Below are positions 30,494-62,675 of a stretch of 64,000 bases of DNA, in pieces (positions within the stretch are counted from its first letter, which is position 1; the number at the start of each line of letters is the position of its first letter). The translations under genes were made by a program, and so were the position numbers. This stretch comes from Schmidtea polychroa (Eukaryota). The stretch is taken from positions 5,954,001 to 6,018,000 of the forward strand of contig CM097885.1 in assembly GCA_044892525.1 (NCBI GenBank). The letters are read 5' to 3'. The notes below the pieces were generated by a model. It did not search any database, had not been told where the DNA came from, and saw only the letters and a program-made list of their open reading frames with translations.

Positions 30494-31183
30494 AGTAGGG
30501 TATTGTGTGGACCCGGGAACAAAGACATATGACGTCATCGATGACGTCACAAAGAAATATGACGTCATACCCCCGGGGAGGGGGTTTTTTTTTAATTTTT
30601 TTTTTTAATTTTTTTTTTTAATTTTTTTTTTTAAATTTTTTAAAAAAATTTTTTTTTTTTAAACATTTTTTTTTAATTTATATTACGTTGCGGTATTTTA
30701 AAATTTATATTACGTTGCGGTATTTTAAAATTTATTATATTTTAATTATTAAATATATTACGTTGCGGTATTTTAAAAACTTATTGATAAAAGTTTAATA
30801 AAATAAAATTATTATTACACACACACAATATAGTCTACCCGACAAAATATTCTGTTCCCCTATGGTCACACACACACACAATGTATAAAAATATTATTTA
30901 CACACACGCAACAAGTTAGTGTTCTCATTGATATATTAATAATCTATATACTCCGAGTCTATCCGACAAAATATTCTGTTCCCCTATGGTCACACACACA
31001 CAATGTATAAAAATATTATTTACACACACGCAACAAGTTAGTGTTCTCATTGATATATTATTAATCTATATACTCCGAGTTTATCCGACAAAATATTCTG
31101 TCCCTCTATGGGTACTGCTCACAAGGGTACTGGTCACGCTCAACAACTCGCAAGGGTATTAATAAACAATGTAATAAAACATA

Positions 31184-31240
<57 letters not shown>

Positions 31241-31335
31241 ATTTCTATCACAAATCATGGTTAACAAAAAACATAGTCGAATATTATAAAATTAAGGTAT
31301 TGTGTTAGCACACACTCGTTATAATAATTAGCAAT
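30494..31335 (+). repeat. Maverick-2 left TIR (842 bp)
   Basis: Near-identical reverse complement of 60311-61014, plus one extra ~123-bp internal unit. Confidence 0.95.
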
Positions 31336-31348
31336 GTAATAAAACATA

Positions 31349-34600: not shown

Positions 34601-35065
34601 GCGATTTCTATATTGCCTATTTATACAGTCATATTTAATAATTGACAAGAAACTATACAAAAAGCAGAAGTGGTCATTATTAACTACATTAATGAGACAG
34701 CTTAAGTTTCTTAAAGATTTTGGGGTTTCAATAAAACTTCTACCACTTAATCGACTTATTTCAGCAAATTTAGTAAGAACAAAGCTTATGTATTCTATTT
34801 TATTGATAGTCCAATTACTACCTTTCTCATTAATTTTAATTATTTTTTCATTTAAACGAGCAATACCTTCGTCAATGAATGTATCGCTCCAAACTCGGGC
34901 GGAATTCGAGATTACAAAAGATTGTAACTCATCATCTTTTATAAATTCCACCTTTAGACAAAATTGAATTTTACATGATTTTAATTTATTTACATATAAA
35001 TTTAATTTATTTATTAAAATTTCTGGTACAGAGACCGTTTTTAAATCTAAAGACGAAACGTCCAT
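31685..35065 (-). CDS. polB: Protein-primed family B DNA polymerase (intact, 1126 aa)
   Basis: YADFE, endonuclease-VII-like CYLC..DHDH..CN, FHNLKGYD, KGIFPY, YIDINNLYG, KLLNNSLYGK, GDTDS. Confidence 0.96.
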   Translation of the reverse strand: MDVSSLDLKTVSVPEILINKLNLYVNKLKSCKIQFCLKVEFIKDDELQSFVISNSARVWSDTFIDEGIARLNEKIIKINEKGSNWTINKIEYISFVLTKFAEISRLSGRSFIETPKSLRNLSCLINVVNNDHFCFLYSFLSIIKYDCINRQYRNRPNSYNLSEIKFDPNDMPMKLSNISKFEQQNPGYSINVLTYNEKALIDIFDEDAVMKHPFIDIIYRSKIVGAIPINLLLIEKNDNYHYLGITDLNRFLNCRNSSITPVRICSQWCPRCLNGFRNDDAFNRHKGLCDKNQLGTTLYTLPKNKYLEFTDWSKTVTPPFVIYADFEAILPKDTRYFQRHLPISAGMLFINNFTGVKIYKSFTGLDCVDQFLTEIEMIGKYIVTPYYYKNYQKKMIITDEQQLMFENSTSCYLCNKPLVSPVRDHDHFTGLYLGAACTTCNLSRQIRHTLPVVFHNLKGYDLHHILKFGLSKYHSWNISCIPLTSEKFLSLFARIDSLTVKFIDSYQFVSESLNNAVKTLSSLPLTESEFQGTIITAKGIFPYDVATSLEVLHNTHQLPPIWKDVTPAEYETAQRIWVETSCTSLFDYMMVYLKLDVFLLADFFQQFRAKSIAHNRLEPLNFLGIPGMSWNSALLTLNSPIELLTDMEMYNFFEGGIRGGLTFVNKHYVKTDPDTALLYIDINNLYGWALSQPLPCSDFEWVTDDNLLNNIIVECTTVDLDLLDYGYTIEVDLEIPTSIHDKLDDLPVAAEKMCVPGSKIEKLLLTHSPKRNYVLHWRLLQIFIKLGVKISKTHRAIKFKQDKIFKNYINTNTALRAASTNKLDKNFYKLLNNSLYGKTVENLKKRINLRLCNSSQRLLTFCSKPTFRKSTKIDDDLISVLLRKDIVCLNRPSYIGQTVLDLSKLRMYQLQYEELQKYRDEFNCEINIVAGDTDSFFLEIKHCSLDILLPAMIRDQLLDTSNYDPNHPLYSRNLDSVIGKFKDENKGLLYKDWVFLRPKCYSLMGDEESMKAKGISMKDTGLTHQSYLDCYLNDKIYTVPQFRITSKNHQLFSIKNNKRALTCRDDKRNWVDKNQSLAYGHYRGGDTDIFIDSTEAISADDTDDFHDTDDFHDPADDNYFGHDYFR

Positions 35066-35124: not shown

Positions 35125-36774
35125 TGTTGGTTACTTAGGGGTGTGTCCTTTTTACAATTTAAAATACGTTAGGGGTAATCATAACCGTTCGACTCTTTCC
35201 TAAGCACCTCCATGACTATTGCAATTTAAACCATTTGTGTACCCATGGCGACGACCATGTTGGCACTGTACACAAAGGTGAAAAAACAATGAGCAGGTGA
35301 GCTCTATTACTAAAACTACTCCCCATTGGATTTTCTTTTCGGGTTCTAGACTGCCGATAGAAGGTCTTACGTCCTTATTCACTATATATGCTATTTTTGG
35401 ATCGTTGTTGGTCCTCAATTACGGGTATTTCTAATTGTTCTCTTATAAAATTTTGTGCAGGGATCCGTCCTTATTTCCCAGCTAGTAATTATTGTTCTAC
35501 ACTTCCTACAATATTTAAATTATCCTTTGAAAAATTTGCGCAGGGATTGGCCCTTATTTTCAAGTTAATCCACACTTGCCATAATATTTAAATTGTCCTT
35601 CAAAGATTTTGAGCAGGGATCTGCCTGTGTTTCTAATCCTGAGCTGTCGGAAAAATTACATAAATCTAACTTTATCCATCTTCAACTGGTCTCAACTATT
35701 CCATCTTTACTCCTAACTCACTTATGTCTATAAAACATAAAGGCGACTAAGCCACCTACATTATCTAAATCTAAATAAAATCCTAAACGACCTAAAATGA
35801 CATTACACTCCCAAATCATTCCTATCACTATCACTGTCCTCTAACTCGATGGACTCAACCGGCGAAATATCTGCCGACCAACAGCACGTAGTGCCGCCCG
35901 TCCACAAACTTTTCCCCAGCCCAGACCATCGACACAATCAACAAATAATATAATTGAATTCAATAAAAACTATGATTTAGAATAAATGAATTTAAACCAT
36001 TAAAAAGGATCACTAAAGAAAATTTAACCGAAACATTAATAGCATATAAAATTTATTAATTAAAATACTCCATAAAAATTACAGAAAACAATAACAAATA
36101 AATTACCACATCCACGTTGGCATAAAATCGAAACTGAGAGTTCTGCAAATTAAGTGGCTATGTTGGAAAAAGTGAGAGTGTTTTTCAATTGAATTTGTGA
36201 TCAGTATTTATACTGATTTTGAATGCGTACTCTATCCAATCAGAGTGCGAGAATTATTGAATTGATTTTGCACACATGCATGAATGTGTGTAATTATTTA
36301 TTTGTTTTAATTTCATAAATTTCTTATTTAATTTTTATTAATTTTAATTTTACAAATTTTATAATTTAACTAATTTGAGTTATATTAATTTTTATTAATT
36401 TAAACATTTTTATTCTTTAAATTTAATAAGTTAAATAACCATTTAATTCTATAAACTTTACAATTTACATAATGCTAATTAATTTTATTATTTTTGACGA
36501 TTTAATCTTTATATTGTTTAAATAATTTTCAACTAATTCCATTTTCTATTTTATTATTTTTCTATTTAAATTTTTAAGTGTTGAATTTTCTGTTAAATTT
36601 ATTTATCTCTTTATTCTATTATACGGGGTTTATTGATTCTTAATGTGTAATGTAGTTTATTTTATTTATTTTAAATTAAACCTTGGTCATAAATTTTTTT
36701 CAACTTTGCGGTTTTTGTGTTAGGTATTTTCGATCGATTAAAACAAACTCTCAGTTCTCGTTTTCAGCCCAACA
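35125..36774 (-). repeat. 3' LTR (1650 bp)
   Basis: Direct repeat of 48880-50536. Confidence 0.96.
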
Positions 36775-37802
36775 AATCACTCCGGGACCCGTTAAAATTG
36801 CGTCCCGCAATTCTGTTAGACATATGAATTTCCCAGGTCATAGTCTATTACATTCCCATTAACCTATAAACATACTATAATAGTTTAAGACATGTTAGAA
36901 TTCAATTAGCAGAAGAAGGTCTAAGCTCAAATTCAAGCAGTTGCCACATACAGTGACTGGTCATAATACACATACATACTGATACAGTGTCCAAACTCAA
37001 GTACGAGTCATATGCAAAAGTTTTATTTCTGGATCAATTCTTCAGTTGGTTGTTTCTTATCTTTTCTGGGTTCGGTTTTCAATCTTTCGGCTGGGTTTTG
37101 TAGGCATGTTTGATTCCTGTTGTTGATTTTCATAATTAGCTCGTAATACTTACTGAAGATCATAGGATTCTCTCTATCGGGGTTTGACTGTTTTCCCATA
37201 TTCTCTTTGGATTTTTAGGTTGGGATTCTGATTTTCTGGATCATTTGATGGTATTGACGGACCTTGCTCCAGGGTTTTCGGAACTTTTGTTCAACTGGGT
37301 GATTTGACACATTGATTTTTCTTTTGGTTTTTCTTGGTGGTTTTGTTTACGGTATTGCTCTTATTAAGGGGTTTTCTTCCTCTAGTGGGTAACTTGAATT
37401 ATTTTCGATTTTGGTCTAAGTTCGCTTGATTTGATTAAGTTTCTAATGTCACTGGGTCTGTGACTTTCGTCTCATTTATCAGGATCTTTTACCGTTCTTT
37501 GTTTAGGGGTTCCAAATTAGGTATTATTTTTAGATATTCGTTTAACTCATTCTTTCTAGGTTTGCATCTTTATCTTTCTTCTGGATTTATATTCTTTCTT
37601 CTCATTTGAGCCTCTGTTCTCCTTTACCATTGTAAGGGTTCAAATTTTGTATTTTTCCCAACTGATTACTTGATCCATTTCTATTTATACATCGATCTTT
37701 TGCCACATTATACATCAATTTATACCTATACATCTAGTACATTTAGTTTGCTATTTATACATCAATTTTTACATATGTTCACTTCCTTTTTACTATTTTC
37801 AT

Positions 37803-40364
37803 CTACACTTCCACGTTAATTTCCACTACATCCTTTGGACTACCCTTCTGCTTTTCCTTGGCTGTCATCATTTGTGTCTCTTCTGCCATATCTTTACATT
37901 TTTCTTGATTACTCGTTATTTCATTGATTCTTAATTCGGCTGACCTCGCTTCTTCTTTTAGTCGGAGTATCGTTGTCTTGAGTACTTCATTTTCTCTTGT
38001 TCTGTTTTCTGCAACCTTTCTCCATATCATTATCAATTCATCCTGTCTCGTTTCTTTTACAACTAGTTCCATTATTAACCTGCACTGTTCCACACATTGT
38101 CTCCTCAATTCCTCGTATGCGTTGGGTTTCACCTGTTCCTTCACGTCATTTGTCCGTCTCTGTACATTTGTCGACTGTTGTTTTATTAGCATTGGAGATT
38201 GGTGTTTTCTAATTTCTGGCTGATAAATTCTGTTTTCGACATATTTTTTATTGTTCTGTTCTGTGACGTATTCTCGTGACTGATCTCTCACTGGGTTTGT
38301 CCCATTCGGACATTTATTGACTAAATGTCCAGTTCTTTTACATTCGTAACACCTCTTTATGCGGCGATATTTATTTTTTCTGTGCTCATTTTTCTGACAA
38401 TTCCCATACGTCTTATCGAAGAACCGATAGCGCTCATTGTGTCCTTGTGGTTGGTATTTGTTCCAGTAATTGTTTGTACTCGCGTCCCATTCGATATCTG
38501 GTTCGCACCCGCTTTCGATTTTTAACGTGTTTATGTCATGGTACTTTTCTTGCGTTTTTTCATTATTTCGTTTTTCGTGATTTTCGCCATTCTTCGATTC
38601 GCGCTTTTCCGGGATTACTGCAATTCCACCCTGACTATCGATGCCGGTATAATCTCTCTGATTGTTCTCAAATGTTTTGATGTTTTGATGGTCTAATATT
38701 ACCTGTTCCAGTTTTTCAATTATTTCGCTTTCGATCCTTGAGTCCGGAATTTTTTGTAAATCTATTTCGTTGCTCGTTATCATTCTCATCATATTGATTT
38801 GTATTACTCTTTTTTGTTCTCTTCCCCATATTCCTTTTATCTTTTCCATCTGGTTGTCGTTGGTGGTTAGTCTCATTATATCCAATTTTAAAAGTTCTTC
38901 CTTTCTCGTTTTCCAATATTTTTCTTCTCTTCTTGCCTGAGGTTCTTTTCGTTTACTCCATCTTTCTTCCGCTTCTCGTGCTTCCGCGATCTGTAAGGTA
39001 TTCCATTCTCGTTGTTGTTTTGTTCGGATATTTTGAATTTGTAATGTGCCTCCCACACATTGTAATACATTTATTCTTGATTGTTGTTTTCCTTCCGCTT
39101 GAAACTGATAATCGATCATGTTACTGCACAGTCCTGTGAGAATTGTTATTTGATTTTGCATTTCAGCTAGTTGCTTTGCTGACGTATCCCTATTGTCACT
39201 CCGTTGTTGGTTTCTTTTCTTCGCACATGCAACTGCTAGATGGTCTCCTTGTCCGCACGAGAAACATTTTTTGGATACTCCACATCTTACTGCGGTATGT
39301 CCTTTCTTACCGCAATTCCAACATCTTCTTTGCCCATGACATTCATCGAGCCAGTGTCCTTGCCTCTTGCAGTTATTACAAAACTTTCCAATGTTTCCAT
39401 TATTCGACCTCTTGCTTTTGTTGTCATTTTCGTTTCTTCGATTATTGTTGTTATGACTCCACTGTCTGTGGTGCTGGGGTTGATTATCTGCGATAGGCCT
39501 CCTACTTGGTGGTTTTGTTACTTTGTAATACATTTCGCTTACATTCGCTGCCTCTACTGCTTCGTCCAGCGTCTTGCAGATTTTGCATCCGACTACACCT
39601 TTAATGTCATCTCGTCGCAATCCTTTTACAAATTGGGTTACTAGTTGTGTTTCCATATCCTTTTCACTGAACAGCGGTTTGGCTAGACGTCTTAGTGCGC
39701 TTGCGTAGAGTATATTTGATTCATTCACTGCTTGTCCTCGATTGAAGAATTCTAGAAATTTGTATTGTGCATCTTTTGCTTCTCCAAATGTTTTTATCAG
39801 AGCTTCCTTAATTTCTTTCCAGGTTTTTAGTGGGTTTGTACACTCTTTTATTCCGACGTACCAATTAAACGCGTCATCTGCTAGATATAGTGGGAGTCTT
39901 CTCACTATCATTTCGTTTGTCCATTTTAGAGCATCGCAATAAGATTCAAAATGTTGGATAAAGTTTGATAGTTTGTTCGGTTTTCCGTCGTATTTTTCGC
40001 CATTATATTTTCCCTGGAAATTGGGTATCTCCATTTCACTGAGTCTCTTGTTGATCGCTTCCATTTGGGCTGTTGTATCTACCATCTTTAATTGTATTCT
40101 TTTTCCGTTTGTCTTTTCTTTTATTAGGTTTATGTCACTTTTATTATTTCTGTTTTCAGATAGAGTTTTTTTTTCCTGAGGTTCTGATACGCGTATTACG
40201 CTTCTTGGCCTATTGTTTTCGAAATCCTTTTCACTGCTTCCTCTTATGGATCGACCTTTGGTCTTTGAGATGTCTTTTTGATTTTGCTTTTCGATTTCTT
40301 GTGCTTGCGTGGGTTTAATAGTTCGTCTTCCTTTCTTTGCAACTTTTAATTCTTCTTCTTTCAA
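37803..40364 (-). CDS. gag: Gag-like protein with four CCHC zinc knuckles
   Basis: KYDGKP..LSNFIQHFE, LPLYLADDAFNWY, QAVNES...FVKGL capsid motifs; knuckles CNNCKRQGHWLDEC, CWNCGKKGHTAVRC, CFSCGQGDHLAVAC, CYECKRTGHLVNKC. Confidence 0.9.
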   Translation of the reverse strand: MKEEELKVAKKGRRTIKPTQAQEIEKQNQKDISKTKGRSIRGSSEKDFENNRPRSVIRVSEPQEKKTLSENRNNKSDINLIKEKTNGKRIQLKMVDTTAQMEAINKRLSEMEIPNFQGKYNGEKYDGKPNKLSNFIQHFESYCDALKWTNEMIVRRLPLYLADDAFNWYVGIKECTNPLKTWKEIKEALIKTFGEAKDAQYKFLEFFNRGQAVNESNILYASALRRLAKPLFSEKDMETQLVTQFVKGLRRDDIKGVVGCKICKTLDEAVEAANVSEMYYKVTKPPSRRPIADNQPQHHRQWSHNNNNRRNENDNKSKRSNNGNIGKFCNNCKRQGHWLDECHGQRRCWNCGKKGHTAVRCGVSKKCFSCGQGDHLAVACAKKRNQQRSDNRDTSAKQLAEMQNQITILTGLCSNMIDYQFQAEGKQQSRINVLQCVGGTLQIQNIRTKQQREWNTLQIAEAREAEERWSKRKEPQARREEKYWKTRKEELLKLDIMRLTTNDNQMEKIKGIWGREQKRVIQINMMRMITSNEIDLQKIPDSRIESEIIEKLEQVILDHQNIKTFENNQRDYTGIDSQGGIAVIPEKRESKNGENHEKRNNEKTQEKYHDINTLKIESGCEPDIEWDASTNNYWNKYQPQGHNERYRFFDKTYGNCQKNEHRKNKYRRIKRCYECKRTGHLVNKCPNGTNPVRDQSREYVTEQNNKKYVENRIYQPEIRKHQSPMLIKQQSTNVQRRTNDVKEQVKPNAYEELRRQCVEQCRLIMELVVKETRQDELIMIWRKVAENRTRENEVLKTTILRLKEEARSAELRINEITSNQEKCKDMAEETQMMTAKEKQKGSPKDVVEINVEV

Positions 40365-41349
40365 TAAACTTGGTTCTATTATTAACTGTTTTGATCTGGT
40401 ATGCTTTGTTATTGGTTCAATATTTCCGAACTTGGCTTAATTGTTTGACAATAACTTCTAGTTGGTTGCTGTTACTTGGCTGTTGGCTTGTTTGCTTGAT
40501 TTACCTGAATAGAAAAATATCACTTCTCCCTATCGTTTATTATATTTATAAATTGTAATATATATATTATATAGTGCAATTGCAATATTTTTACTTTGGT
40601 TTCTTTGGGTGCCGGCATATCTTAATATTCATTTCGTCGTTAGTTTTGTTTACACATTGGTTCTCAAATTCCTACGTAATTTTTTCGATCCTTCTTATTT
40701 AATTCACATTCCTTTTCTTCGTTTCTATAGTTTTCTCTACTTTAACTGTCTTTTTTCCTTGGCTTATCTCTATCTATTGACTTGCATTACTTGTATTCTT
40801 GTTTCTATCTTAGTTTTCTTCATTGATGTAGTCTTTATTCTGTTCATGTTTGTTTCCGATTTTTATAATTTCCTCCGTTTACCTTATTGGTCGTCCTTTA
40901 TATCTCTCTTTTTCCATTATCGTTACCAATTTTTAGACTTATTTATTATTCTTGACTCGGTTCTCCATTATTCATTCTATATTCTCATCTATTCTCCTAC
41001 ACGGTTGTCTATTTTCAATTCGTTTTTCGTCTTTTTCCTTCACGATCTTATTTATTTTCAGTTATATATCTGTCAATGACTTCGGCTGTATTCTCATTTA
41101 TAGTCCCGTCTATGTTTCTTTCTAGGTACTCATCTATATTCTCGTTTATCTTTCCTTTTACCTTCTCATCTATATTTACGTCTGTTATTTCCGTTTATTA
41201 TTCGTAGTTATTATTCTCGTTTATATTCGCGTCTATGTTTCTTTCCAGGTACTCATCTATATTCTCGTTTATCTTTCCTTTTACATTCTCGTCTATATTT
41301 ACGTCTGTTATTTCCGTTCCTATTCGTAGCCATTATTCTCATTTATATT

Positions 41350-42004
41350 CGTATCTCTTATTCGCATCTATTATTTGCATCTATTATTCGCATCTATTAT
41401 TCGCATCTATTATTCGCATCTATTATTCGCATCTATTATTCGCATCTATTATTCGTATCTATTATTCGCATCTCTTATTCGCATCTATTATTCGCATCTA
41501 TTATTCGCATCTATTATTCGCATCTATTATTCGCATCTATTATTCGCATCTCTTATTCGCATCTATTATTTGCATCTATTATTCGCATCTATTATTCGCA
41601 TCTATTATTCGCATCTATTATTCGCATCTAGTATTCGCATCTATTATTCGCATCTATTATTCGCATCTATTATTCGCATCTATTATTCGCATCTATTATT
41701 CGCATCTATTATTCGCATCTATTATTCGCATCTATTATTCGCATCTATTATTCGCATCTATTATTCGCATCTATTATTCGCATCTATTATTCGCATCTAT
41801 TATTCGCATCTATTATTCGCATCTATTATTCGCATCTATTATTCGCATCTATTATTCGCATCTATTATTCGCATCTATTATTCGCATCTATTATTCGCAT
41901 CTATTATTCGCATCTATTATTCGCATCTATTATTCGCATCTATTATTCGCATCTATTATTCGCATCTATTATTCGCATCTATTATTCGCATCTATTATTC
42001 GCAT
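41350..42004. repeat. 13-bp minisatellite (CTATTATTCGCAT)n, ~50 copies
   Basis: Direct reading; homogeneous at the right end, variants at the left. Confidence 0.97.
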
Positions 42005-45000
42005 TCCTTTGACTGTCCTTGTCCCTATCATTCTGCCTACCGGTTATCTATCAATTTAGTCTTTAAGCTCTAATTGTTTCTCTTTACTTCGCTCTCTCTT
42101 TTCCCATTTACTTGGTCTTCTTTTTATTTCTCCTACATGCTTCTTTTTACTACTCTTCCAGGTTTTCCCCACTCTCCTGACTCCGGATGCGAAACACTCG
42201 CACTGGTCGATCTCCGATCGTGTGGTGATCAGTCACACGCAGAGATGTTCCAGTATATGCGATGGGCCCTGTTCCACATCTTTCGTCAGGACAGTTGGTA
42301 CTTTCCTGGGCCTTATCCGTACTACGCTGAGCGTAGCTCATAGGTTGTGGATTTCCTAAATCCTAACAGAAAAATTTTTTCCTTATTCATTTGCTCTCAA
42401 TTTTCGTAGGACTTTATTCTCATTTTTACGTCGTGCTCTTAATCTACTTATCTCAATTACTCTTGGTCCTTCTTCATTATTCTAAATATGTCCACGTCTC
42501 TTGTCTAGTTAACGTCTTATTGCTATCGCTTTTACTCTTACCGCTTTAGTTGACTTGTTTCTCGTTAATATGCTCACTATTTCCTCAGGCAGATCCCTCT
42601 CGCATCACTCGTTAATATTTGTTTATCCATTTTATTCGTTACCCTTCTATTCGTCAATGGTTTATTTATTAACCATCCCTGCTCAATTTTGTAATTTATC
42701 ACGCTTCCGTATTAGTATATTTTCCTTATCTTTGATTTTTTATGTTACCTCACTGATTTCCCCGTCATAATGTTTCTCATTTCGTATATTTTACGTTTTC
42801 AAAATTTGTTTGTTGTTTTTCTGTTTATGGGCCTCTTTGTTCCACTCCCTATATTTTATGTTTTTAACTTATTTCCGCGTCTATTTGTTATTTTACTTTT
42901 GGCGCGTAACTTTGATTGGTCATTTATTTTCATTATCTCATTTAATTGTTTATCTATGTCTACATATACACTCATATACTTATACATATACCCTTATCCA
43001 TAACCGTATATTCATATACCTATATCCACCTATATCTGGATATCTACATCTGTACGCATTTCTCCCTAGCTGTTCCTGGAGTGGTTGATATTATTGCTTC
43101 CATCATTTCTGAATTTATTCAAATTTATCATTGAAATTCCCACAATTGTAACTTTATAGTTCGTAATAAAAGTAGACAGTCCGTTCGTTTTTCATTATTG
43201 TAACTTTTTGCTCCATAGTAAAAGTTGGCAGTATGTTCGTTTTCCCTAATTAAAACTTTTGTTCGATATTTCTAATTGATCTCATTTTTGTTAGCATCTA
43301 TTGTTATTTTAATTGACCGTGTCGTGATGTTAAGCTTTCAATTTTTTGTTCTGTTTCTCTGTATCATGTTTCATTTTATATTTGTCGTTTCTCGCTGTTT
43401 TGCCTTTTCGTTCAAATGTCTTTGGCCTTGCTTTCCTTCTGTGAATTTGTTATTTGTTGTTTCATGTTTGTTCATTTCGTTCTGTGTTTTCCTTGTCATT
43501 TTTATTGTGTTTATTTGTTCATATTCTATTTTGTTATATGTGTGCTCTTCATTTTCTGTCAATCATGTTTTTGTATACTTTTTTCCGATTGTTCCTATTA
43601 TTGCTCATGTCCATTTTGACTTTCATCTTGATCTCCCGTTTGTTGTTATCTTAGTTTGATCTCATTTTTCCTCCGCGTCTTCGCCAAATGTCGTCCCCGA
43701 CATTCATTATTTAATTTATTTATTATCTTGTGTTCTCTCGGTTCTCAGTATTTTGTTCTCGTGTCCTCTCTACAATATTTGCCAAACGTCCATTTTTTCT
43801 GATTGATTTTCCTTACTCTTAAATAGGCGTAGATTTTAATAATTTGAGTTTTCGCATTATTTTATCTTTGTTTACGGTGATCGGTCCTCTACTTTTATTA
43901 TATATCATTTTTGTTGGGGTGTATACACCGATATATGCAATTATTCATATACAATTAGTCCTCTTTATGGCACTCAGTTCTGCCATTACTGTCTCTTTTC
44001 AATGCTATGACCATGCTAATAGTTCGTTGGTTTTCTCCTTTACCAACAGAAACCACCGGTACAAGTGTTCTTCTACTCATTCCACCTCCATCTCGGTATA
44101 TTGAATGCTTCATTTTATGACTATTTTCCATGAATATAATGCTGTAATTGTTACAGCTATTTGTATTTCATCTTCAGCTCCCTGCATTTTCCTTTTCCCG
44201 TTTCCTTTTAACGTCTGATATTATCCGTTGCATTTTTATCATATCTTTCTCTCCTTGATTTCCCCAGCTATTCTTATTAGTTCATTTCTTGCATTTAACT
44301 TTATCATTAGAGTTGTTCTATTTCTCTTCACTTTAGTTCAATTTTTCCTCTCTGGCCTTGATTATTCTCTCACGAACAAATTCATTGTTCAAATTTTCGA
44401 TTAGATTGTTCCTCCATGAGATTCCTTACTTCTGTATAGCTAATGCTATTTACGATAATATGACGCTTTTCTGCTTCCATATTTCTCCTGTGGTGGTATT
44501 GGGATTGATTTCCATTGTGATCCGTTTCATTCTATTAATTCACCTACATTGATTCCTAATCTTTTATCTGAATTTTATTACATTTTATTTCCCAAAGTTA
44601 TATACTAATTATACCGCGCTGATATATATATATATATTTTTATATAATCATATACCTTTATATATTCATTGTTCACACTATATATAGTCATCACCCTTTC
44701 TATGTATGTGGGTTCGTAATTCGTGATACTTGCTAGATCTCTCCCCACTGTTCTTAGTTTAGTGTTCTGTACTCTTTCATTTACTGTATATTTCACCCGT
44801 CTGGTTCTAATTGTTTCCAATTCTCTATCGTTGACGTTGGATAATTTTTCATACTTCTTTCCGGTTATTAATATGAGCATCGTACGTTTAACTGTCTTGT
44901 ATATTCATATTACTTTGGCTAACCTTAGGCTTCCTGGTTTCTTTCGCTGGATCATTTTCGTTGATACCTATCATGTTATTCTCGTATCTTGTATATTTAC

Positions 45001-48000
45001 TTTCATTGATTTCTCTCTATACTTTGTCAATCTCCCGAGTCGTTTTACATAAGTTTTAGAATTCATTTTCTACGTACCCTGGGTGTCTGTGATGTTCGCC
45101 TATTTTGCAAAGTTTTTCACTGCCTTTTAACTTAGTTCTCGTGCCTTTGTCACGAAGATTTTATTTCGATTTGTTTTTGCTCTATTTTTGTACCGTGATT
45201 TTATTTTTTCGCAGTTATGCTCGATTGTCTTTGGTTCAGATTTATTTTTCGAGTTACCAGCAAGTTTAGTTCTTGTTTTTGTTCTTTTACTTAACGCTTT
45301 TGTTCATTTTGTTCATTTCTATTCGTGATGTTTCGATGTCTTTTCTTGTCTTTACTTTCTTTTACTTTCCGTAGAATCTGTTGACTCGCTCGGTTTCGTC
45401 TGGTAAACTCATCTCTTTATCTATAATGTTGTTCGTCTCAGATTCACATTTGCAGAAGCTAAGACATGGTTATCATTTGTTTTATTTATCGTTTGGTACT
45501 TTGTTATCTGTCGAGTTTTATCGTATTTTTCATTTGGATGTTTATTCAATCGTTTTTATGGTTTGGTCTTTCCATTTTACCGATGCATTTAACATCCTTG
45601 GGTACTCTACCCTTGGGTTGGTATGCGTAGAAGGTATTACCTGTAGAGTATAATTGGTTTAAATAGTCCTTATCATACACTGTATGTATCGACAACTCAA
45701 TACCAGAATCATATATAGCTTGCTTTTTCCTAAACCCCCTAATCCATACATTCTTATATATCATTTGCATATAATCATTCATACCATTACATATTCATTT
45801 ATCAGTATATTCTCAAAAAGTTCCCCTTCTAAAGCCGCTATCATTCCCTCGGTTTATCCATTCACTAATCAACGTAATAACAATTAACATTTAATAATTC
45901 ATTGACATAAATATTATCAAGAGCCTGCATAACCAATCCTCAACCAATTGCTGGCCCATCATTCAACCATTCAACCAAACAAGGACAAATTATCAAGGAG
46001 AAGACTTATTTATTTTCATAAAATTAGCTTAGCTTACTTATCCTATTGTCAAACCCTGAATTTACTAAAATCCGGATGTAACGATATTCATACATTATTC
46101 TTTTGTTCTGGGCGTATCCAATCATGTTTAGCAAAGAACATTCCGTCTATCTAAATAGAGTAATTTTGTCGAAACCAATTAATTACGATTTGCTACTCCG
46201 TATAATTTATAATTTCCTAATAAATTCCTCAATGCACTGCTAGCAATTTCCTCGAAACAGATTATTAATTCCATACACACGATAATTGATTTTTGATTAC
46301 GCCTAAGATTTATTTGCAAACCACAGCCCGCAACACAACACCATGACCCCACAGGAGTCAACAATGCACAATTCGATCAAGCTCCAATCACGAGCACTCG
46401 ATGTATAGAAGCGTGTCAATTAAAATCATTGTCAAGATGCGCACCAACCGAAATATATTTGTAAAAACTTATAGTTGCAAGTGTCTTGTCTTACCAGTGT
46501 ATCCACATGCTCTTCGGGTGTACGATTTCACCCGCCCTTCGTCTTTACTATTATCATAATTTGTAAATAATCACACCGACCAGCAACCGATCACAATCGA
46601 ATGGGTACTGATTTGGGTTTTTATAATATAGACCTTAGTTTACCTATAATAAATGTGCGTATGAATTAGCAATGTGAGATTAAATTGGCAATTATATTAT
46701 ACAACAATAGGAAACAAAATCGATGTTAATAATATATATATTATAAACAAGCACACACAAACACGGCTCGCAAGACACATGCAACAGGATATTGATTCAA
46801 CAAGGGCATTTAATCAGCTGAAATTTTCCAATTTAAAATTAACAACAAAAATTGTACGAGGATGTTTGTAACCTCATCAGAATCGACTATTTCGTTTCGA
46901 GAATTTCGTAGCCAAATGTGTAAGCTTTTCATTTAAACTTGAGACATTTTATAAAATCTATATGGAATGGCCATTGCTGACAACGAAAGAATCATCAAAT
47001 CCATGGCGGATGGCCATAATTATCACGAATCAGGCCACATTCTCGGAATCCAACGGAATACAATAATCGGCACCATAAATAAAATTTACTAACATTTTTA
47101 GAATAGAAATTCCACTACAGTTGTTTAGGACGCTTGTGATATTTTATTACAGACAAGGCAGACCAACATATAGAGTCAAGTCAATAACACTAAGACGCAT
47201 AAATCAACACTACTTATACAACACACGAATTTATAATTGAATATTTCACGCATATATAAAAAAAATTTTGAAATTACCACTATCCTGAGATTAATAACAC
47301 CAAATAAAATTGATGGTTCTGACCAGTGGACATGATTTATTAATACATTGATTATCCCATTACTGAGTAACAATAATTATTTAAGTGCATATAAATTTGT
47401 ATACAAGTACAAAATGCCATAGTAACATAATTAAAAATCATTTTCATACATGCAAATTTGACAATTTTCTGTTTTATTTTAACCAATTAAATCAAAAATA
47501 GAAAGCCATACATAATTTTATTAAAAACTGAATTTTAAAATACTTATAAAACATACTTGATTTAATTAGTAAAGTCCATAAAATCAATAAAAAATATATA
47601 TAACCATTCCAACTATACTGCACTGAAAAGTCGCTCAAAGTTTTACTCGACATCGACAAAAGCCACGAAACGAACCGAGAGAAATTGCAATGAATCGAAG
47701 AACTAATCAAATTTCCAGCATCATTTTCAAAAGTAAATGTTCGAATTATTATTCCAATTAATAGACATGGTAAAATCAATAAAAACGTATTCCATTTTCG
47801 TTCTGTCAATCTCATATCATTTCAATTTCATCTGAACATTACAGCAACAATCCAAATCCAAAAGAAGTGAAATCTAAAAACGAAAAACAAATAACTGTAA
47901 AACATCTCGTTTCTGATTGGCTGATTTTCATGAACGTAGAAAACCAATTGCACACGCATTGTACAGAACACGCATGCACACATGCCATGCCATACCGCCG

Positions 48001-48854
48001 GCACACACACCAACCGACACCGCAATGTAAAATCATCAACTCAAATAATCACTCAACCATGAAAGAAAAAACACTTTAAACCTGCACCAACCATTCCTCA
48101 ACTCACCCTTATCATTAATACACTGCGGTAGTGCTCAAATGCGCGTCTGAACACGCCCCTGAGCCAAACCGCGCGTTGCGCATCACTGCGTTTCTTCGCT
48201 GAAACCAGTTCAGACGGGCAAAGTCCCCATGCCACCGCTGATGCGAAAACGTGTTGCTAATGTTGATTGATTGTTCCAAAATACGATCTATCATGATTAA
48301 ATAGAATGTATTGAAAATTTTCCATTCGCACTATATGTAGTTATGATTTTTGAACTTCTGCTTTGAGGTAAAATTCTCCATAATAATAGGTCAATTGTTG
48401 ATGATGGCCTTTAGATTATATGGTAGTTATCGGATAAATATTTATAGGAATAAGTTGGAATGTAGCTGACAGTGTCACTTATTTTGTACTAATGAGATAA
48501 CATATAATCATTACAGATTGCATTCAAGCCAGTCAGCACTTGGTGAGCCTATAATGATACTATTGTTGACAGGGCGAATGTTCTAAGGATCGAATTCACA
48601 TTTTTATAAGCATTTGTTAATTTTAATAACGTTTAAATGAGTTTTTATCATCGCATATATATTTATATAATGATCAACTATTAATTCTATCGACAATTGT
48701 AATTATAAATTTTATTTTATTTCTATTAATTATTTCATTAATTGCTCTTTCATATATAACAGAAATTTGTTCACAGAAGCATACACACAGATCTTTATGT
48801 TTACATACATTCCTTGTAGACTTAATTTTTTTATATATTTTTTTTTCTTTTTGA

Positions 48855-48872
48855 TTCCCGGCTGAGCCCCCA
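48855..48872 (-). promoter_or_regulatory. Primer-binding site, tRNA-Pro-like
   Basis: Minus strand TGGGGGCTCAGCCGGGAA, 7 nt downstream of the 5' LTR; resembles the tRNA-Pro PBS TGGGGGCTCGTCCGGGAT. Confidence 0.8.
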
Positions 48873-48879
48873 AAAATCA

Positions 48880-50536
48880 TGTTGGTTACTTAGGGGTGTG
48901 TCCTTTTTACAATTTAAAATACGTTAGGGGTAATCATAACCGTTCGACTCTTTCCTAAGCACCTCCATGACTATTGCAATTTAAACCATTTGTGTACCCA
49001 TGGCGACGACCATGTTGGCACTGTACACAAAGGTGAAAAAACAATGAGCAGGTGAGCTCTATTACTAAAACTACTCCCCATTGGATTTTCTTTTCGGGTT
49101 CTAGACTGCCGATAGAAGGTCTTACGTCCTTATTCACTATATATGCTATTTTTGGATCGTTGTTGGTCCTCAATTACGGGTATTTCTAATTGTTCTCTTA
49201 TAAAATTTTGTGCAGGGATCCGTCCTTATTTCCCAGCTAGTAATTATTGTTCTACACTTCCTACAATATTTAAATTATCCTTTGAAAAATTTGCGCAGGG
49301 ATTGGCCCTTATTTTCAAGTTAATCCACACTTGCCATAATATTTAAATTGTCCTTCAAAGATTTTGAGCAGGGATCTGCCTGTGTTTCTAATCCTGAGCT
49401 GTCGGAAAAATTACATAAATCTAACTTTATCCATCTTCAACTGGTCTCAACTATTCCATCTTTACTCCTAACTCACTTATGTCTATAAAACATAAAGGCG
49501 ACTAAGCCACCTACATTATCTAAATCTAAATAAAATCCTAAACGACCTAAAATGACATTACACTCCCAAATCATTCCTATCACTATCACTGTCCTCTAAC
49601 TCGATGGACTCAACCGGCGAAATATCTGCCGACCAACAGCACGTAGTGCCGCCCGTCCACAAACTTTTCCCCAGCCCAGACCATCGACACAATCAACAAA
49701 TAATATAATTGAATTCAATAAAAACTATGATTTAGAATAAATGAATTTAAACCATTAAAAAGGATCACTAAAGAAAATTTAACCGAAACATTAATAGCAT
49801 ATAAAATTTATTAATTAAAATACTCCATAAAAATTACAGAAAACAATAACAAATAAATTACCACATCCACGTTGGCATAAAATCGAAACTGAGAGTTCTG
49901 CAAATTAAGTGGCTATGTTGGAAAAAGTGAGTGTTTTTCAATTGAATTTGTGATCAGTATTTATACTGATTTTGAATGCGTACTCTATCCAATCAGAGTG
50001 CGAGAATTATTGAATTGATTTTGCACACATGCATGAATGTGTGTAATTATTTATTTGTTTTAATTTCATAAATTTAATTAATTTCTTATTTAATTTTTAT
50101 TAATTTTAATTTTACAAATTTTATAATTTAACTAATTTGAGTTATATTAATTTTTATTAATTTAAACATTTTTATTCTTTAAATTTAATAAGTTAAATAA
50201 CCATTTAATTCTATAAACTTTACAATTTACATAATGCTAATTAATTTTATTATTTTTGACGATTTAATCTTTATATTGTTTAAATAATTTTCAACTAATT
50301 CCATTTTCTATTTTATTATTTTTCTATTTAAATTTTTAAGTGTTGAATTTTCTGTTAAATTTATTTATCTCTTTATTCTATTATACGGGGTTTATTGATT
50401 CTTAATGTGTAATGTAGTTTATTTTATTTATTTTAAATTAAACCTTGGTCATAAATTTTTTTCAACTTTGCGGTTTTTGTGTTAGGTATTTTCGATCGAT
50501 TAAAACAAACTCTCAGTTCTCGTTTTCAGCCCAACA
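48880..50536 (-). repeat. 5' LTR (1657 bp)
   Basis: Direct repeat of 35125-36774; differs by a 2-nt and a 9-nt indel. Confidence 0.96.
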
Positions 50537-53018: not shown

Positions 53019-54242
53019 TTATACTAGCACGGTTCTATTTGCAATAATTTGAACTTCATTTTCAAATACTCCATATATTATAACATGTACCGGTTCAGTA
53101 ATAGCTTTTGCAAACTTAATATCCAGTCGTAAATTCCCGTTTTGTGGTAGTTGACTCTGATTTAAATCAAAATCCGGAGCTAAAACAAATGTGAAAAATG
53201 GATATTTGCTTTTAAATTCTTCTAGAGTTATTCCACAATTCAAGTTTTTATCTAAGTAACCCAGATTTCTAACAATACTCTGCATATATGTCGCACAGTA
53301 ATTATCGCTTTCGAAATCTTGAGTATATGTTTCTCTATAATCAGTATTTTTCGACAAAGTCAATGAAGTAACACCAAAATTTTTGAAAATTGAGCTGGAA
53401 GCAGTATATGATCCATTATATTGCGTTTCATTTTGAAATGTTACCAGAATAAAATTAGGCATTCTTCTGTCACCAAATATTTGTTCTTTATAGAATGATG
53501 AAGCACCTTTAGCAATAGCAAATTGTACAATTTCCTTTGTTTTTAAAGGATAAATTGCATGTTTTGAATTAAGACCCAATTGATGACCAGCTAATACTGA
53601 CGGGTCTACTCGAACTCTTCTCACCAATAATTTTGCATCAACTAATTGGCATATTGGTGCACCAGTTGCACTAGTAAGAGATAATGCAGAATCAGACCTT
53701 TTCAATCTAATGTGTACATTAACTCCTGGTAGCAAATATTTCGGTTGATCCATAAAATCGAGTTGTAATGATGAGCACATAGTGAATGATTTTGAGCCTT
53801 TAACCCACTTTTTTCTTTCATCATCTGTTGCTGCATAACCCATGGGTGTAAGACAGGTATTTTTAGTATCGGAATTGTAATTTAAAATAGTTTCTATCAA
53901 AGCCTTGTGAATGAATGTATTATTTCCGCCCTCAATCTTAATATTATTAAATCCCAAGACTGCATCTTTAAACAGAGTATGAAACATGAAATTGTTCGGT
54001 ATTACATCTGCATTGGCATCCAAAACTTTTCTATCTTTATCTACAACCTTGATCTGAACAGTCAATAAAGTATCATTCAAATCTAAATATTCAGTTTGCG
54101 AACCATTAATATAAAACTCGATATCATTTCTACTATCAGTAATTGAATTCATAGGAAAAACTTCCTCAAAGGCCCCAAATTCGATTACAGCTTGAGGCGA
54201 TGGTCTATCAAATATACATAATTCAGATTTACCACAAATCAT
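53019..54242 (-). CDS. Double jelly-roll major capsid protein
   Basis: KSELCIFDRPSPQ, EYLDLNDT, QPKYLLPGV, GNLRLDIKF, typical of the classical Maverick MCP. Confidence 0.9.
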   Translation of the reverse strand: MICGKSELCIFDRPSPQAVIEFGAFEEVFPMNSITDSRNDIEFYINGSQTEYLDLNDTLLTVQIKVVDKDRKVLDANADVIPNNFMFHTLFKDAVLGFNNIKIEGGNNTFIHKALIETILNYNSDTKNTCLTPMGYAATDDERKKWVKGSKSFTMCSSLQLDFMDQPKYLLPGVNVHIRLKRSDSALSLTSATGAPICQLVDAKLLVRRVRVDPSVLAGHQLGLNSKHAIYPLKTKEIVQFAIAKGASSFYKEQIFGDRRMPNFILVTFQNETQYNGSYTASSSIFKNFGVTSLTLSKNTDYRETYTQDFESDNYCATYMQSIVRNLGYLDKNLNCGITLEEFKSKYPFFTFVLAPDFDLNQSQLPQNGNLRLDIKFAKAITEPVHVIIYGVFENEVQIIANRTVLV

Positions 54243-55125: not shown

Positions 55126-56136
<1,011 letters not shown>

Positions 56137-56705: not shown

Positions 56706-57344
56706 TCAAATTTGTTTTAAACTTTGTTTATAAACCATGGCACCTTTTGGGTTGAAAATATCTGTTTTTACCCGTATATCATCAGGACATTGTTGTGTGA
56801 AATCGAGAAATATATACCCATGAGGTATTTTCGTAGCATCTTGAAATGCACTGATAAGAAAATTACGGTTATTAGGGTATGCTTGTCGTCCAAGAAAATC
56901 GATGACAGTTGCATCTCTAGGATTCTTGAAAATAACTAGATATTGTACATTTAAATTACGTGTTCGATGTGCACCACCTTGATGAAATAGATTTTGTGTT
57001 ATGAAAATAACTTTTACACCAACATGTCTGCTGATTTTTGTGAATAAATTATTAAAATCCTTTTCTTTATTGGCTTCTTGATACAAATCATCGATAATGA
57101 TGACATCATCTTTTTTCAAACGACTTGACCAGTTTTTATCAAAACCCTTTACTATTTTCATGTTTTTCAATTGACAGAAACTTGATTGAGTCAATCCATG
57201 TTCTTCATCGGCGCCCCTATGCCAATAAATATTGTTGAATTTTGTTTTGAACAAATTAGATTTTAGTAATTTACAAACAAATAATGTTTTTCCACTACCA
57301 CTCGGACCAACGATTTGGTATACTGCATCATTTCGTAATTCCAT
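56706..57344 (-). CDS. A32/FtsK-like packaging ATPase
   Basis: GPSGSGKT, IIIDDL, SRH, ITQNLF, FKNPRD. Confidence 0.95.
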   Translation of the reverse strand: MELRNDAVYQIVGPSGSGKTLFVCKLLKSNLFKTKFNNIYWHRGADEEHGLTQSSFCQLKNMKIVKGFDKNWSSRLKKDDVIIIDDLYQEANKEKDFNNLFTKISRHVGVKVIFITQNLFHQGGAHRTRNLNVQYLVIFKNPRDATVIDFLGRQAYPNNRNFLISAFQDATKIPHGYIFLDFTQQCPDDIRVKTDIFNPKGAMVYKQSLKQI

Positions 57345-57448: not shown

Positions 57449-57913
57449 ATGCTTTCAAATATAAATTACATGGCAAAAGCTGATGTATCAAAAATGGTAT
57501 TTCCAATGGGGAAACCACAACAACTCATCAATAGAAGTAAAAAATATCCAATAATATATTTCAAAACTGGTAAATGTAGAATTATGGGGTGTAAGGAAAT
57601 AATCAAAGCTAGTGAATATAATGTTTATGATTTAGAAATACAATCGATAACCGTAACTTCCGATATAGGTTTTTCTTGTAATTTAAATAATTTGGCTAAA
57701 TTAATACCATGCTTTTGCGAACCAGAATTATTTCCAGCTTTGAGATATATAAAATATAACCCTATGTGTGTAAATATATTCGCTAGCGGTAAAATAGTAA
57801 TTCTTGGAATAAAAAATATTGATTACAAATGTATAGTTGATAATATCATATCTGAAATTAAATCAATAATTGAAGGAAAAGAATTTTTAGATTTTTTATT
57901 ATCACTTAATTAA
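57449..57913 (+). CDS. TATA-box-binding protein (TBP)-like
   Basis: Two TBP half-repeats: IIYFKTGKCRIMG and IQSITVTSDIGF..NL..LA...CEPELFPALRY...NIFASGKIVILG. Confidence 0.85.
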   Translation: MLSNINYMAKADVSKMVFPMGKPQQLINRSKKYPIIYFKTGKCRIMGCKEIIKASEYNVYDLEIQSITVTSDIGFSCNLNNLAKLIPCFCEPELFPALRYIKYNPMCVNIFASGKIVILGIKNIDYKCIVDNIISEIKSIIEGKEFLDFLLSLN

Positions 57914-59664: not shown

Positions 59665-60193
59665 TTAATTTTTATTCATATATCTACAGAAAATATACAT
59701 TATAACAACTCCAGTTGTAAGTTTTATATAGTTTTTCATTTTTCTTTTGATTTCATCAGTTTCTTTAAAATTGCAGGCCAGTTTATTTAATACACCCCAT
59801 CCGCCATTGGCTTCTATCCATGGGGTAAACTTGGACTTGATTATCTAGAAATGAATATTATTAAAATATAGATTATAAAAGAAATCTTACTTCTAAAGAC
59901 CAATGATAATAATGTTCTGAATCATGTTGACCTTTTGCAATGATTATCTTCATGTAGGTGAATCCTACAATTATCCTTGTCCATTTCATGTCTTCATCGA
60001 AAAGACACTGAAATATTCTATTGAAGTAATACTTCTTGGTTTCCAGGGATTCCATCTCCATCATCTGCTGATAATCGATATGTTCACCTTCAATGATTTG
60101 TTCGGTTCGATTGATCAGGAAATTGAGGCTGTCGACTATATTCGCGGTGACAATTCCGTTTAGAACATTTTCCATAAAATTTGGTTGCGACAT
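59665..60193 (-). CDS. Bcl-2 family protein, 160 aa (exons 60193-59891, 59844-59665)
   Basis: BH1-like LFDEDMKWTRIIVGFTY, BH2 FTPWIEANGGW, C-terminal hydrophobic anchor LTTGVVIMYIFC; 46-nt GTAAG...CTAG intron. Confidence 0.82.
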
Positions 60194-60310
60194 TTCTAAA
60201 ATAATTTAAAATATAATGTTTTTATTTATACTAATACCATATGATTTTGATTGGTTGATAGACTATAAATGTAAAAGAAAGGTTTTGATTTGATACACCA
60301 TAAAAACTAT

Positions 60311-60405
60311 ATTGCTAATTATTATAACGAGTGTGTGCTAACACAATACCTTAATTTTATAATATTCGACTATGTTTTTTGTTAACCATGATTTGTGATA
60401 GAAAT

Positions 60406-60462
<57 letters not shown>

Positions 60463-61014
60463 TATGTTTTATTACATTGTTTATTAATACCCTAGCGAGT
60501 TGTTGAGCGTGACCAGTACCCTTGTGAGCAGTACCCATAGGGGGACAGAATATTTTGTCGGATAGACTCGGAGTATATAGATTAATAATATATCAATGAG
60601 AACACTAACTTGTTGCGTGTGTGGACACTAATAATATTTTTATACGTTGTGTGTGTGTGTGTGACCATAGGGGAACAGAATATTTTGTCGGGTAGACTAT
60701 ATTGTGTGTGTGTAATAATAATTTTATTTTATTAAACTTTTATCAATAAGTTTTTAAAATACCGCAACGTAATATATTTAATAATTAAAATATAATAAAT
60801 TTTAAAATACCGCAACGTAATATAAATTTTAAAATACCGCAACGTAATATAAATTTTAAAAAAAAAATTTTTAAAAAAAAATTTTAAAAAAAAAATTTAA
60901 AAAAAAGCCCCCCCTCCCCCCCGGGGGAGGGGGTGGGGTATGATGTAATATGTCTTTGTGACGTCATCGATGACGTCATATGTCTTTGTTCCCGGGTCCA
61001 CACAATACCCTACT
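60311..61014 (-). repeat. Maverick-2 right TIR (704 bp)
   Basis: Inverted copy of 30494-31335. Confidence 0.95.
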
Positions 61015-62675
61015 TATGTTAAAAATAAAAAAATATTACCATATTATTTTTATTCTATATGAAAATATTTGTTGATACCCCTCTCCTTCAAAGTTGTCCC
61101 GCTTTGCCCATCTAAAAATCTGGTCACCTTAACTATGTCTCAAGATTTACGGAATAATTTAACTATCAAATAATGTTGATAATTATGATTCATTAATAGA
61201 TCAATTTTAGTGAGAAAATGTAGAAAAAAGCTTTTTTAAAGATGTTTTCACTAAGATTATTAATTATTTGTAATAAATTATACAGAACTATGAATAAAGT
61301 CATGAAGTAATAAAATTAAAAAATTGGGTAAATTATTTAGAAATCTTTCGTATCCAAAATTGAAAATTATTCCGCAAGAAATATAAAATATTGAATTTTC
61401 ACACGATTACTTTGTCACCAAGGAGAGAAAATAAAAATTGCAAATGGGGGCCCCTTAAAGTGTAATCCGGCCTTAGGTACTATGCAACAGTAACAATCAA
61501 AGCCTTAATAAAAAATTGACTATGCAAAATTAACAGAATGACTATTGTTGTCCTTGAACCAAGTCCCGGATTTGTTTCATCAAACAAGTAATAGCATGCA
61601 TTGTAAGTTAATTTAAATTCAATGAAAATCCCCAAAAAACAATGACGATTGATTGAAAAGTATAAATTAAAAGGTTAATTAACGTAGAAAATATCAAACG
61701 AAAAGGACAATCAGTCAATAAAAAATGAAAGATTTAAATAAAGTAAATAGTTTGATAGGCCATACCATAAAAGCGTGGATAAATTTAACCTGATTGGCTG
61801 AGGAAACGCACCAATCATTCAAATATACTGATTGTTCAAAAATAACGGTATACTGTAGTTTTATAAAATCTCAATTGTATGCCTTTTAATTGATAGCAAA
61901 CCTATGAAGCTGAATATTTCGAAGTTAAGTTCTGAACTTAATGTTGTTTTCGTTTTTTTGTGGCTTTCATTTCTGATGCTTGTTGTGATCATCAATAATA
62001 TTATGGACAGCACCCAATTAATATTATGAGAGGAGGTTGGTAAGTCAGTCAGTCCTGGCCCGAGATTGAATAAGTCTTAGGAAATTTTGACTGTTTCACT
62101 GATCTATTCGAGAGTCACTTTAAATGACAGATTTTGCTAAGGGTCTTGGCGTAGGTGTAGTGAGCCGTTACACGGCCTTAACAATATCTATATACCTATT
62201 ATACTATATTATATTATATTATACGATATTATATTATATATATAAATGCGCGGTCACCAGCGACTAAGGACCAAACAGAACACAATAACAGTCAATCAAA
62301 ATTCGTGCGATCAGCTAATACTTCTACTTATCAATCAGGCTCTATTAATCAATCTCAGAAGAGTAAAGCAAATTCGATGCCATGTTATCATTATCAAGAT
62401 AAACTGTATTCGGCTCCCAATAGTTTTAGTGTTGGCTCTCATAGACCAACACCCTCATCCATTACAATTCGCGAAATACGGAACAAATCCTAACAATAAT
62501 ATAAAAACCTAAATTTGTTTATTTTGCATTTATTTATTAGTAATTGACTACTTGAAATTCTTACGCGAAATTTATAAAATCGTTAAGCTTTTTAAATTAT
62601 ATATTTTTAAAAATCTGTTTATTTTTTATCGAATGATATAATTTTGTATTTTTTTGTAATTTTGTTTACTTATAT

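Follow-up and report, generated by a model that had tools for sequence, protein, structure and literature searches.

The window, i.e. the whole stretch of 64,000 nucleotides of Schmidtea polychroa DNA which was analysed, contains a Maverick/Polinton carrying a spliced gene of the Bcl-2 family. The gene has two exons and 160 codons (60193-59665, minus strand), and both exons are under purifying selection between the subfamilies of the element. Its homology to the Bcl-2 family is secure at the level of sequence, and one host gene coding for a Bcl2-like protein is the likely donor. A function can be proposed from the motifs: with a probability which we put at roughly 0.6, the product would be a pro-survival protein anchored in a membrane and altered in its BH3 selectivity.

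The element and its genes

The genome of 781 Mb is AT-rich and has four large contigs; one of its single-copy genes shares 90% identity with an entry from Schmidtea mediterranea. The element which carries the Bcl-2 gene spans 30494-61014 and has the traits of a Maverick/Polinton, namely long terminal inverted repeats (TIRs), a 6-bp target duplication, an integrase of the rve type, a packaging ATPase and a double jelly-roll capsid protein. The features are listed below; P0004 denotes the S. mediterranea protein C9WPR4 / ACW83059.1 ("Bcl2-like protein").

30494..31338: left TIR of the Maverick
31685..35065, minus: putative protein-primed PolB, an ORF of 1126 aa with an endonuclease VII domain and family-B motif B at residue 829
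35134..50535, no strand given: LTR retrotransposon of 15.4 kb; 1.64-kb LTRs 99.3% alike; gag and zinc-knuckle matches
53019..54242, minus: major capsid protein with a double jelly roll; its Atlas score against PF21738 clusters is 0.98
55126..56136, minus: retroviral-type integrase, PF00665, E 1.2e-7
56706..57344, minus: A32-like packaging ATPase, PF04665, E 3.4e-7
57449..57913, plus: TBP-like ORF, PF00352, E 3.9e-13; 53% identical in the sister Polinton family
59665..59844, minus: exon 2 of the Bcl-2 gene, 59 codons (59844-59668) and a stop codon which ends at 59665; it codes for the end of helix 6, for BH2 and helix 8, and for a basic linker followed by a hydrophobic tail; residues 1-56 gap-free on P0004 127-182, E 2e-9
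59686..59721, minus: predicted tail anchor, 12 uncharged residues flanked by K/R, mean Kyte-Doolittle 2.11
59797..59820, minus: BH2 motif WIEANGGW, aligned to WIQENGGW of Bcl-xL
59845..59890, minus: intron of 46 nt, phase 0, GT-AG, with the GT donor at 59890 and the AG acceptor ending at 59845
59891..60193, minus: exon 1 of the Bcl-2 gene, 101 codons coding for a BH4-like helix, a BH3 region that is degenerate, BH1 and the first part of helix 6; PF00452 20.3 bits, E 8e-4; residues 18-101 gap-free on P0004 43-126
59975..59986, minus: KWTR, the BH1 core, in which W and R are retained and Thr stands in place of Gly
60222..60256, minus: putative promoter with a CCAAT box (60256-60248) and a TATA-like box (60230-60222)
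60308..61014: right TIR of the Maverick, its inner edge 115 bp from the ATG of the Bcl-2 gene
61015..61020, plus: 6-bp target-site duplication; the same hexamer at 30488-30493

The Atlas recognition of the capsid ORF is 2151, which is below the mark of 2300, and the ORF has no Pfam match. The 1126-aa ORF is probably a PolB; a PolB profile or PDB match was not found, and the patterns used did not find motifs A and C. The neighbouring element, whose large ORF is about 26% identical to copies of this ORF, is another Maverick, at about 14476-26862, with a PF21738 capsid, an integrase fused to a PLA2-like domain and an A32 ATPase; no Bcl-2 match was found in this element (about 14.5-26.9 kb). The LTR retrotransposon is young and interrupts the present Maverick copy upstream of the PolB-like ORF.

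A second small gene absent from the ORF list is located at 59286-59620 on the plus strand, convergent with the Bcl-2 gene. It likely has a first exon of 16 nt followed by a putative GT-AG intron of 41 nt and about 97 codons. The helix at the N-terminus of the predicted product and its Cys/His-rich end are conserved; the acidic linker is variable. The product is 57-68% identical in diverged subfamilies, was not found in the sister family and has no family match of note.

A two-exon gene under purifying selection

The initial annotation postulated a hidden spliced Bcl-2 homolog beside the TIR, of which the ORF track would show exon 1 alone, and its coordinates proved exact. The only listed frame is an unspliced ORF of 106 aa, and removal of the 46-nt GT-AG intron adds an exon 2 which indeed carries the BH2 motif WIEANGGW. 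In contigs of runs X1 and X2, which are RNA-like, 59844 is joined to 59891 and exactly 59845-59890 (46 nt, CT..AC ends) is skipped. Four runs were compared at the junction. The joint is present in two of them (X1 and X2) and is the sole joint listed; X4 and X5 have no coverage of the junction. The depth is 46 with a side of 30 letters in X1, one below the bridging rule of the read-placement method, and 18.2 with a side of 39 in X2. It should be noted that both runs belong to a single study, that their RNA status is a guess (no run is recorded as RNA) and that the evidence consists of contigs not assignable to this copy. X1 also has depth within the intron, and X2 has poly(A)-like loose ends elsewhere in the Maverick. 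Over a wider span (X1, X2, X3 and X6) the junction is not among the 15 of 22 joints listed, which is uninformative for X6, a DNA-like run.

Genomic DNA was used as a control with identical exact flanks: a spacer of 0-3 nt was found in 0 copies and a spacer of 40-55 nt in 260. The joined form is therefore no genomic variant as far as this assembly goes. Of the 260 loci the first 30 were inspected: the GT is kept in 29 and the AG in all 30, and both exons are full-length and open with both splice sites intact in 25. The intron is 46 nt long in 21 of these loci, 52 nt in seven, and 47 and 54 nt in one each. Two diverged subfamilies (73-84% protein identity) have a phase-0 intron of 48 and 45 nt, respectively, at the same site. 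Homology leads to the same joint. Database homologs cease to resemble exon 1 at the splice-site residue, and P0004 is aligned by exon 1 over residues 43-126 and by exon 2 over 127-182, back to back and gap-free from helix 2 through the tail; the predicted splice is thus exactly the one which homology requires. Alternative donors (59900, 59931) and acceptors (59836, 59830) are present in the sequence, and the 46-nt joint is the only one seen in the runs.

Three other candidates were discarded. A second intron at GGW is ruled out because the spliced X2 contig is continuous to 59770, and a read-through product because the length of the intron is mostly not divisible by three and, in the copies where it is, the intron ends in TAG. 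The join 57925->58637 in X3 lacks GT-AG ends, and we regard it as a variant at the DNA level. In X2, loose poly(T) ends which precede 60193 and 57397 imply poly(A)-like ends on the minus strand where none would be expected; they occur in contigs of diverged copies and possibly reflect internal priming.

Exon 1 is present in at least 150 copies with 97-100% identity (the best 150 of 2390 candidates were scored). Selection was estimated from Nei-Gojobori counts on sequences which are AT-rich and partly saturated. All seven pairs between subfamilies have a dN/dS of 0.07-0.20 (Fisher p 2e-9 or lower), and both exons are constrained. Within subfamilies the values are 0.27, 0.52 and 0.90, none of the three significantly below 1, and here the counts are too small to test. 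The intron (59845-59890 of the window) is 91% identical to that of locus L031 between two subfamilies, at near saturation of the synonymous sites (dS about 1.9). Either a constraint on a minimal intron or an exchange between subfamilies would account for this likeness.

Upstream of the gene the CCAAT word was found in all four regions compared (three subfamilies and the sister family) and the TATA-like word in the three from this family. Some copies (L053/L054, L055/L056, L057/L058, L059, L064/L065) have the Bcl-2-bearing arm at both ends, inverted and of variable length, which suggests an end-to-end template switching able to fold the gene into extended terminal repeats.

Family membership and probable host donor

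Exon 1 alone scores 20.3 bits against PF00452, below the cut-off of 31.4, which is cleared by the intronless homolog of the sister family (32.7) and by the host gene (46.4). The PF00452 scan proposed in the initial annotation falls short for exon 1 alone and succeeds for the sister and the host gene. Exon 1 scores 21.2 bits against a host-exon profile, exon 1 together with exon 2 scores 40.4 bits, and through these comparisons the match extends over BH3-BH1-BH2. A profile made from the element and host rows found 134 PDB sequences at E<=0.01 (best E 2.3e-6); the best 60 of them are all Bcl-xL, A1 or Bax with Bcl-xL leading. The PDB neighbours of exon 1 are A1 or BAK in eight of nine cases, none significant (BAK E 0.19-1.4), and the first three Atlas clusters carry PF00452 (0.91-0.92; on 12-46% of members).

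With respect to motifs, the protein has a BH2 of the form W-x(3-4)-GGW after helix 6. The Gly-Asp BH3 of Bax, Bak and Bok (Leu-x-x-x-Gly-Asp) is absent at the aligned position in helix 2. The tail anchor announced for exon 2 is probable, as a 12-residue uncharged stretch between basic residues, but it is short; this stretch with its basic flanks is kept in the three subfamilies and matches the tail of the host homolog, which likewise has 12 residues (Kyte-Doolittle 2.05).

Structure prediction, also proposed earlier, gave a divided answer. The exon-1 model is poor (pLDDT 63.5) and uninformative; fold searches with it gave no significant match and put generic helical repeats on top. The model of the sister protein (pLDDT 73) has eight helices in Bcl-2 order, and the top six rows of its fold search are Bcl-2-fold chains with Z 7.7-9.1, which is middling for helical proteins, and an rmsd of 1.7-2.3 for five of the chains and 6.3 for one. 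In a viral structure library this model had no match at E<=0.001. A Bcl-2 helical fold of the element protein is thus supported only indirectly, through the predicted structure of its intronless sister.

BH1 reads KWTR instead of NWGR, as had been noted, and does so in all three subfamilies; the sister family has CWSK and the host gene RWSR. The glycine of NWGR, canonical for groove-binding anti-apoptotic viral Bcl-2 proteins, is absent from the element protein. The initial annotation saw here a divergence of the viral Bcl-2 type, and this interpretation is not supported. Since the probable donor is already RWSR, the substitution is not viral drift, and the glycine is absent from six of the eight host-like Bcl-2 loci examined (L033, L043-L048), i.e. 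the planarian Bcl-2 family is broadly non-canonical. The anti-apoptotic viral Bcl-2 proteins treated in PMC2836074 retain the glycine. It is reported there as the sole NWGR residue kept by vaccinia F1L and as required for the pro-survival activity of Bcl-2, KSHV Bcl-2 and F1L, and BH1 mutations abolish the activity of E1B-19K, A179L, BHRF1 and KSHV Bcl-2. A Bcl-xL-like host gene, its NWGR intact, is present in seven nearly identical copies (L013-L019) in one region, at about 89.9-90.8 Mb of contig G000:C4.

The donor was sought among the best 150 of 909 matches in a PF00452 scan of the genome. Besides two Polinton families and a Burro-like domain within a polyprotein, these comprised eight distinct host-like loci, which were examined. 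Among nine donor candidates the host locus L033 scores 61.6 bits, the next one 36.2 and the Burro-like domain 25.4. L033 is single-copy, as against at least 260 copies of the element gene, and has no Polinton genes within 10-15 kb. Its full-length counterpart is P0004 (L098 is grouped with L033); like the element protein P0004 has a BH1 without glycine, the same BH2 and a 12-residue tail in a colinear, gap-free alignment, at an identity of 21%. The element copy differs from the host gene by a shorter loop between helices 1 and 2 and by the position of its intron. In the host gene BH3, BH1 and BH2 are on one exon ending at GGW, followed by a canonical intron of 2,972 nt and a last exon coding for the tail; according to PMC8998228, pro-survival Bcl-2 genes show a high conservation of this post-GGW boundary. 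Exon 2 of the element gene crosses the boundary, the GGW intron is absent, and the new intron lies 16 codons upstream. A comparison of the intron position with host Bcl-2 genes had been called for by the initial annotation: none of the eight host-like loci has an intron at the site used by the element. The 43-aa tail after GGW matches the last host exon in ungapped comparison (block-shuffle p 1e-4, <5e-5 and 5e-4 for the three subfamilies). The GGW intron is gone and the host-like tail is kept, and the captured copy had therefore lost this intron, as a spliced message would.

The sister Polinton family has a PolB about 50% identical to the present one, the same local gene order and a Bcl-2 homolog at the same position; this homolog is intronless and 40-48% identical to the host gene. 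The simplest history, as we infer it, is that a processed (reverse-transcribed) copy of a gene of the L033 lineage was captured and that a new intron was later gained in this family. A different origin, either from the Bcl-2 domain of a Burro-like retrotransposon or by two captures of the host gene in the two Polinton families, seems unlikely to us. The tree (14 rows, long branches, weak) supports Polinton plus L033 at 60/15 and rejects neither two captures nor, in the AU test, Polinton plus Burro (p-AU 0.09). In the best tree the sister family and the host gene form a group (83/85) which leaves out this family; furthermore, the sister tail does not match the host tail in ungapped comparison (p 0.5). 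Against a Burro origin stand the 25.4 bits compared to 61.6 for L033 and the host-like tail, which it leaves unexplained, and against a double capture the location of the gene at the same place, within the same gene order, in both families.

Proposed function and related systems

The proposal for which a probability was given above is that the element captured a host Bcl2-like message as a spliced, reverse-transcribed copy and gained an intron inside the element. The gene would be expressed early from the TIR-proximal CCAAT/TATA promoter, and the product would go to mitochondrial or ER membranes through its short tail, where its groove, with an altered selectivity, would hold host Bak or BH3-only proteins in check. 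Death of the cell hosting replication of the element would be delayed, and the element would benefit by surviving the DNA-damage signal which linear, protein-primed replication and integration may cause. The BH4-like helix, the lack of a Gly-Asp BH3, the intact BH2, the basic-flanked tail and the exon layout of the donor all fit a membrane-anchored pro-survival protein. Altered selectivity is proposed because the Gly found in the BH1 of canonical pro-survival proteins is a Thr here; mouse Boo/Diva (Bcl2l10), with Ser at this position, is reported to have altered BH3 selectivity (PMC8998228). The selectivity is a property of Boo, which is a cellular vertebrate gene, and the likeness consists of a hydroxyl residue in BH1. 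Planarians do make use of mitochondrial permeabilisation and cytochrome c release (PMC11463336), and planarian bcl2-1 is reported to be essential for survival, RNAi causing death (PMC6970515, PMC4993586); a literature search with ACW83059.1, the accession of P0004, found no paper which would link it to bcl2-1, -2 or -3. We have counted against the pro-survival function the BH1 without glycine, the 12-residue tail, the poor exon-1 model, the 21% identity to the host protein, the weak tree and the limited RNA evidence. Among host BH3 sequences the best match is that of L013, a Bcl-xL-like gene, and in the host loci examined neither a Bak BH3 nor a credible pro-death BH3 partner was identified.

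The protein could instead have a non-apoptotic job, for instance in autophagy, in calcium release or in the control of innate signalling. It would have inherited this job from a paralog in the host, which may itself not be a classical death blocker; models would be the poxviral Bcl-2-fold immunomodulators and M11 of gammaherpesviruses. We regard this as possible though not probable. The BH1 glycine is lost in element and donor alike, such a loss may signal an alternative function (PMC8998228), and roles outside the groove exist (PMC7022251), but the latter source confines NF-kB-inhibiting Bcl-2 folds to the Poxviridae, the host gene has the pro-survival exon layout (PMC8998228), and purifying selection has conserved the Trp and Arg of BH1 as well as the BH2 and the tail. 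That the gene codes for a pro-death or decoy protein, which would neutralise host pro-survival Bcl-2 proteins late in replication and allow particle release, we consider very unlikely: the non-canonical groove and the presence of BAK among the weak PDB neighbours of exon 1 would agree with it, while the missing Gly-Asp BH3 and the lead of Bcl-xL among the profile matches would not, and hundreds of intact, transcribed killer copies in the genome would presumably be costly.

Even more improbable is that the gene was once useful cargo and is now a passive passenger, spliced at a low level from leaky copies with no present effect. The strong constraint along the lineages leading to the present subfamilies speaks against it, and so does the fact that 25 of the 30 copies inspected have kept open exons and intact splice sites. 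In its favour one can cite the retrotransposon in the present copy, the silencing of planarian Polintons by piRNAs (PMC8532177) and the within-subfamily dN/dS values, whose counts are small.

The pro-survival protein proposed here has several relatives in kind. Small Bcl-2-fold genes with a degenerate BH3 are likewise found in DNA virus-like replicons in the case of E1B-19K, F1L, KSHV Bcl-2, BHRF1 and A179L. A pro-survival role, probable for the element gene from its sequence, would be shared with the anti-apoptotic viral Bcl-2 proteins; the element gene differs from them in being endogenous and intron-bearing and in having neither the BH1 glycine nor homology to PF01691. The suggestion that it is an analog of adenovirus E1B-19K survives at best as a loose functional analogy. 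PF01691 gave no row for either exon when these were scanned separately at E<=10, and the Atlas row for E1B-19K (0.86) is a lead only. E1B-19K is not known to have a C-terminal anchor.

According to Starrett et al. (2021; PMC8502044) adintoviruses encode Bcl2 and IAP homologs, and their supplementary map file has three labels. The planarian gene resembles these homologs as Bcl-2-family cargo in the same class of element, and it is spliced, has a BH1 without glycine and a traceable donor. A protein labelled "Bcl2 [Branchiostoma lancelet adintovirus]" (BFVD A0A5H3CWZ2) has rank 4 for the sister model with E 0.43, which is not significant. Protein searches with exon 1 found three near relatives, a profile found the same three, and a 50% library one; such searches are insensitive to short divergent proteins. 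With no sequence relative found outside this lineage, the capture was likely separate from those of other adintovirus Bcl2 genes. Planarian terms have no match in the part of the supplement of Starrett et al. (PMC8502044) which was examined, and in the passages available from the literature searched we found no report of a Bcl-2 gene in a planarian Polinton.

Cell-death regulators are also present on another type of high-copy mobile DNA in planarians. Burro giant Gypsy elements carry BCL2-like and IAP/BIR motifs (PMC6431247), and a study cited in PMC13465017 reports that stem cells are protected by the IAP region of Burro1. The Bcl-2 domain of Burro is part of a retroelement polyprotein and distant (25 bits), whereas the gene described here is stand-alone, spliced and located in a DNA element. 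In this genome a Bcl-2-like domain occurs in many copies within frames of up to about 3,000 codons (L034, L036, L037, L039, L042, L051), and it resembles the published Burro motif in kind (PMC6431247). Planarian Polintons are described as piRNA targets which tend to wake during differentiation (PMC8532177). One may speculate that a Bcl-2 without the BH1 glycine, present in several hundred copies and turned on when Polintons are de-repressed during differentiation, would aid survival of the host cell and regeneration. Giant mobile elements would then have captured death blockers repeatedly and independently, here with a non-canonical groove, as a DNA-virus counterpart of the Burro1 mutualism; we think it quite unlikely that this is so.

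Bcl-2 cargo in adintoviruses is already published, and what the planarian gene adds is an unusually traceable origin. The donor gene, the lost host intron, the intronless sister and the newly gained intron are all found in one genome, which makes it a clean and traceable case of Bcl-2 acquisition by an endogenous DNA virus. It bears on the question of whether Mavericks manipulate host cell death, as would be expected of real viruses. The pair of host and element proteins without the BH1 glycine is natural material for finding out how such Bcl-2 proteins work, in animals which are amenable to RNAi.
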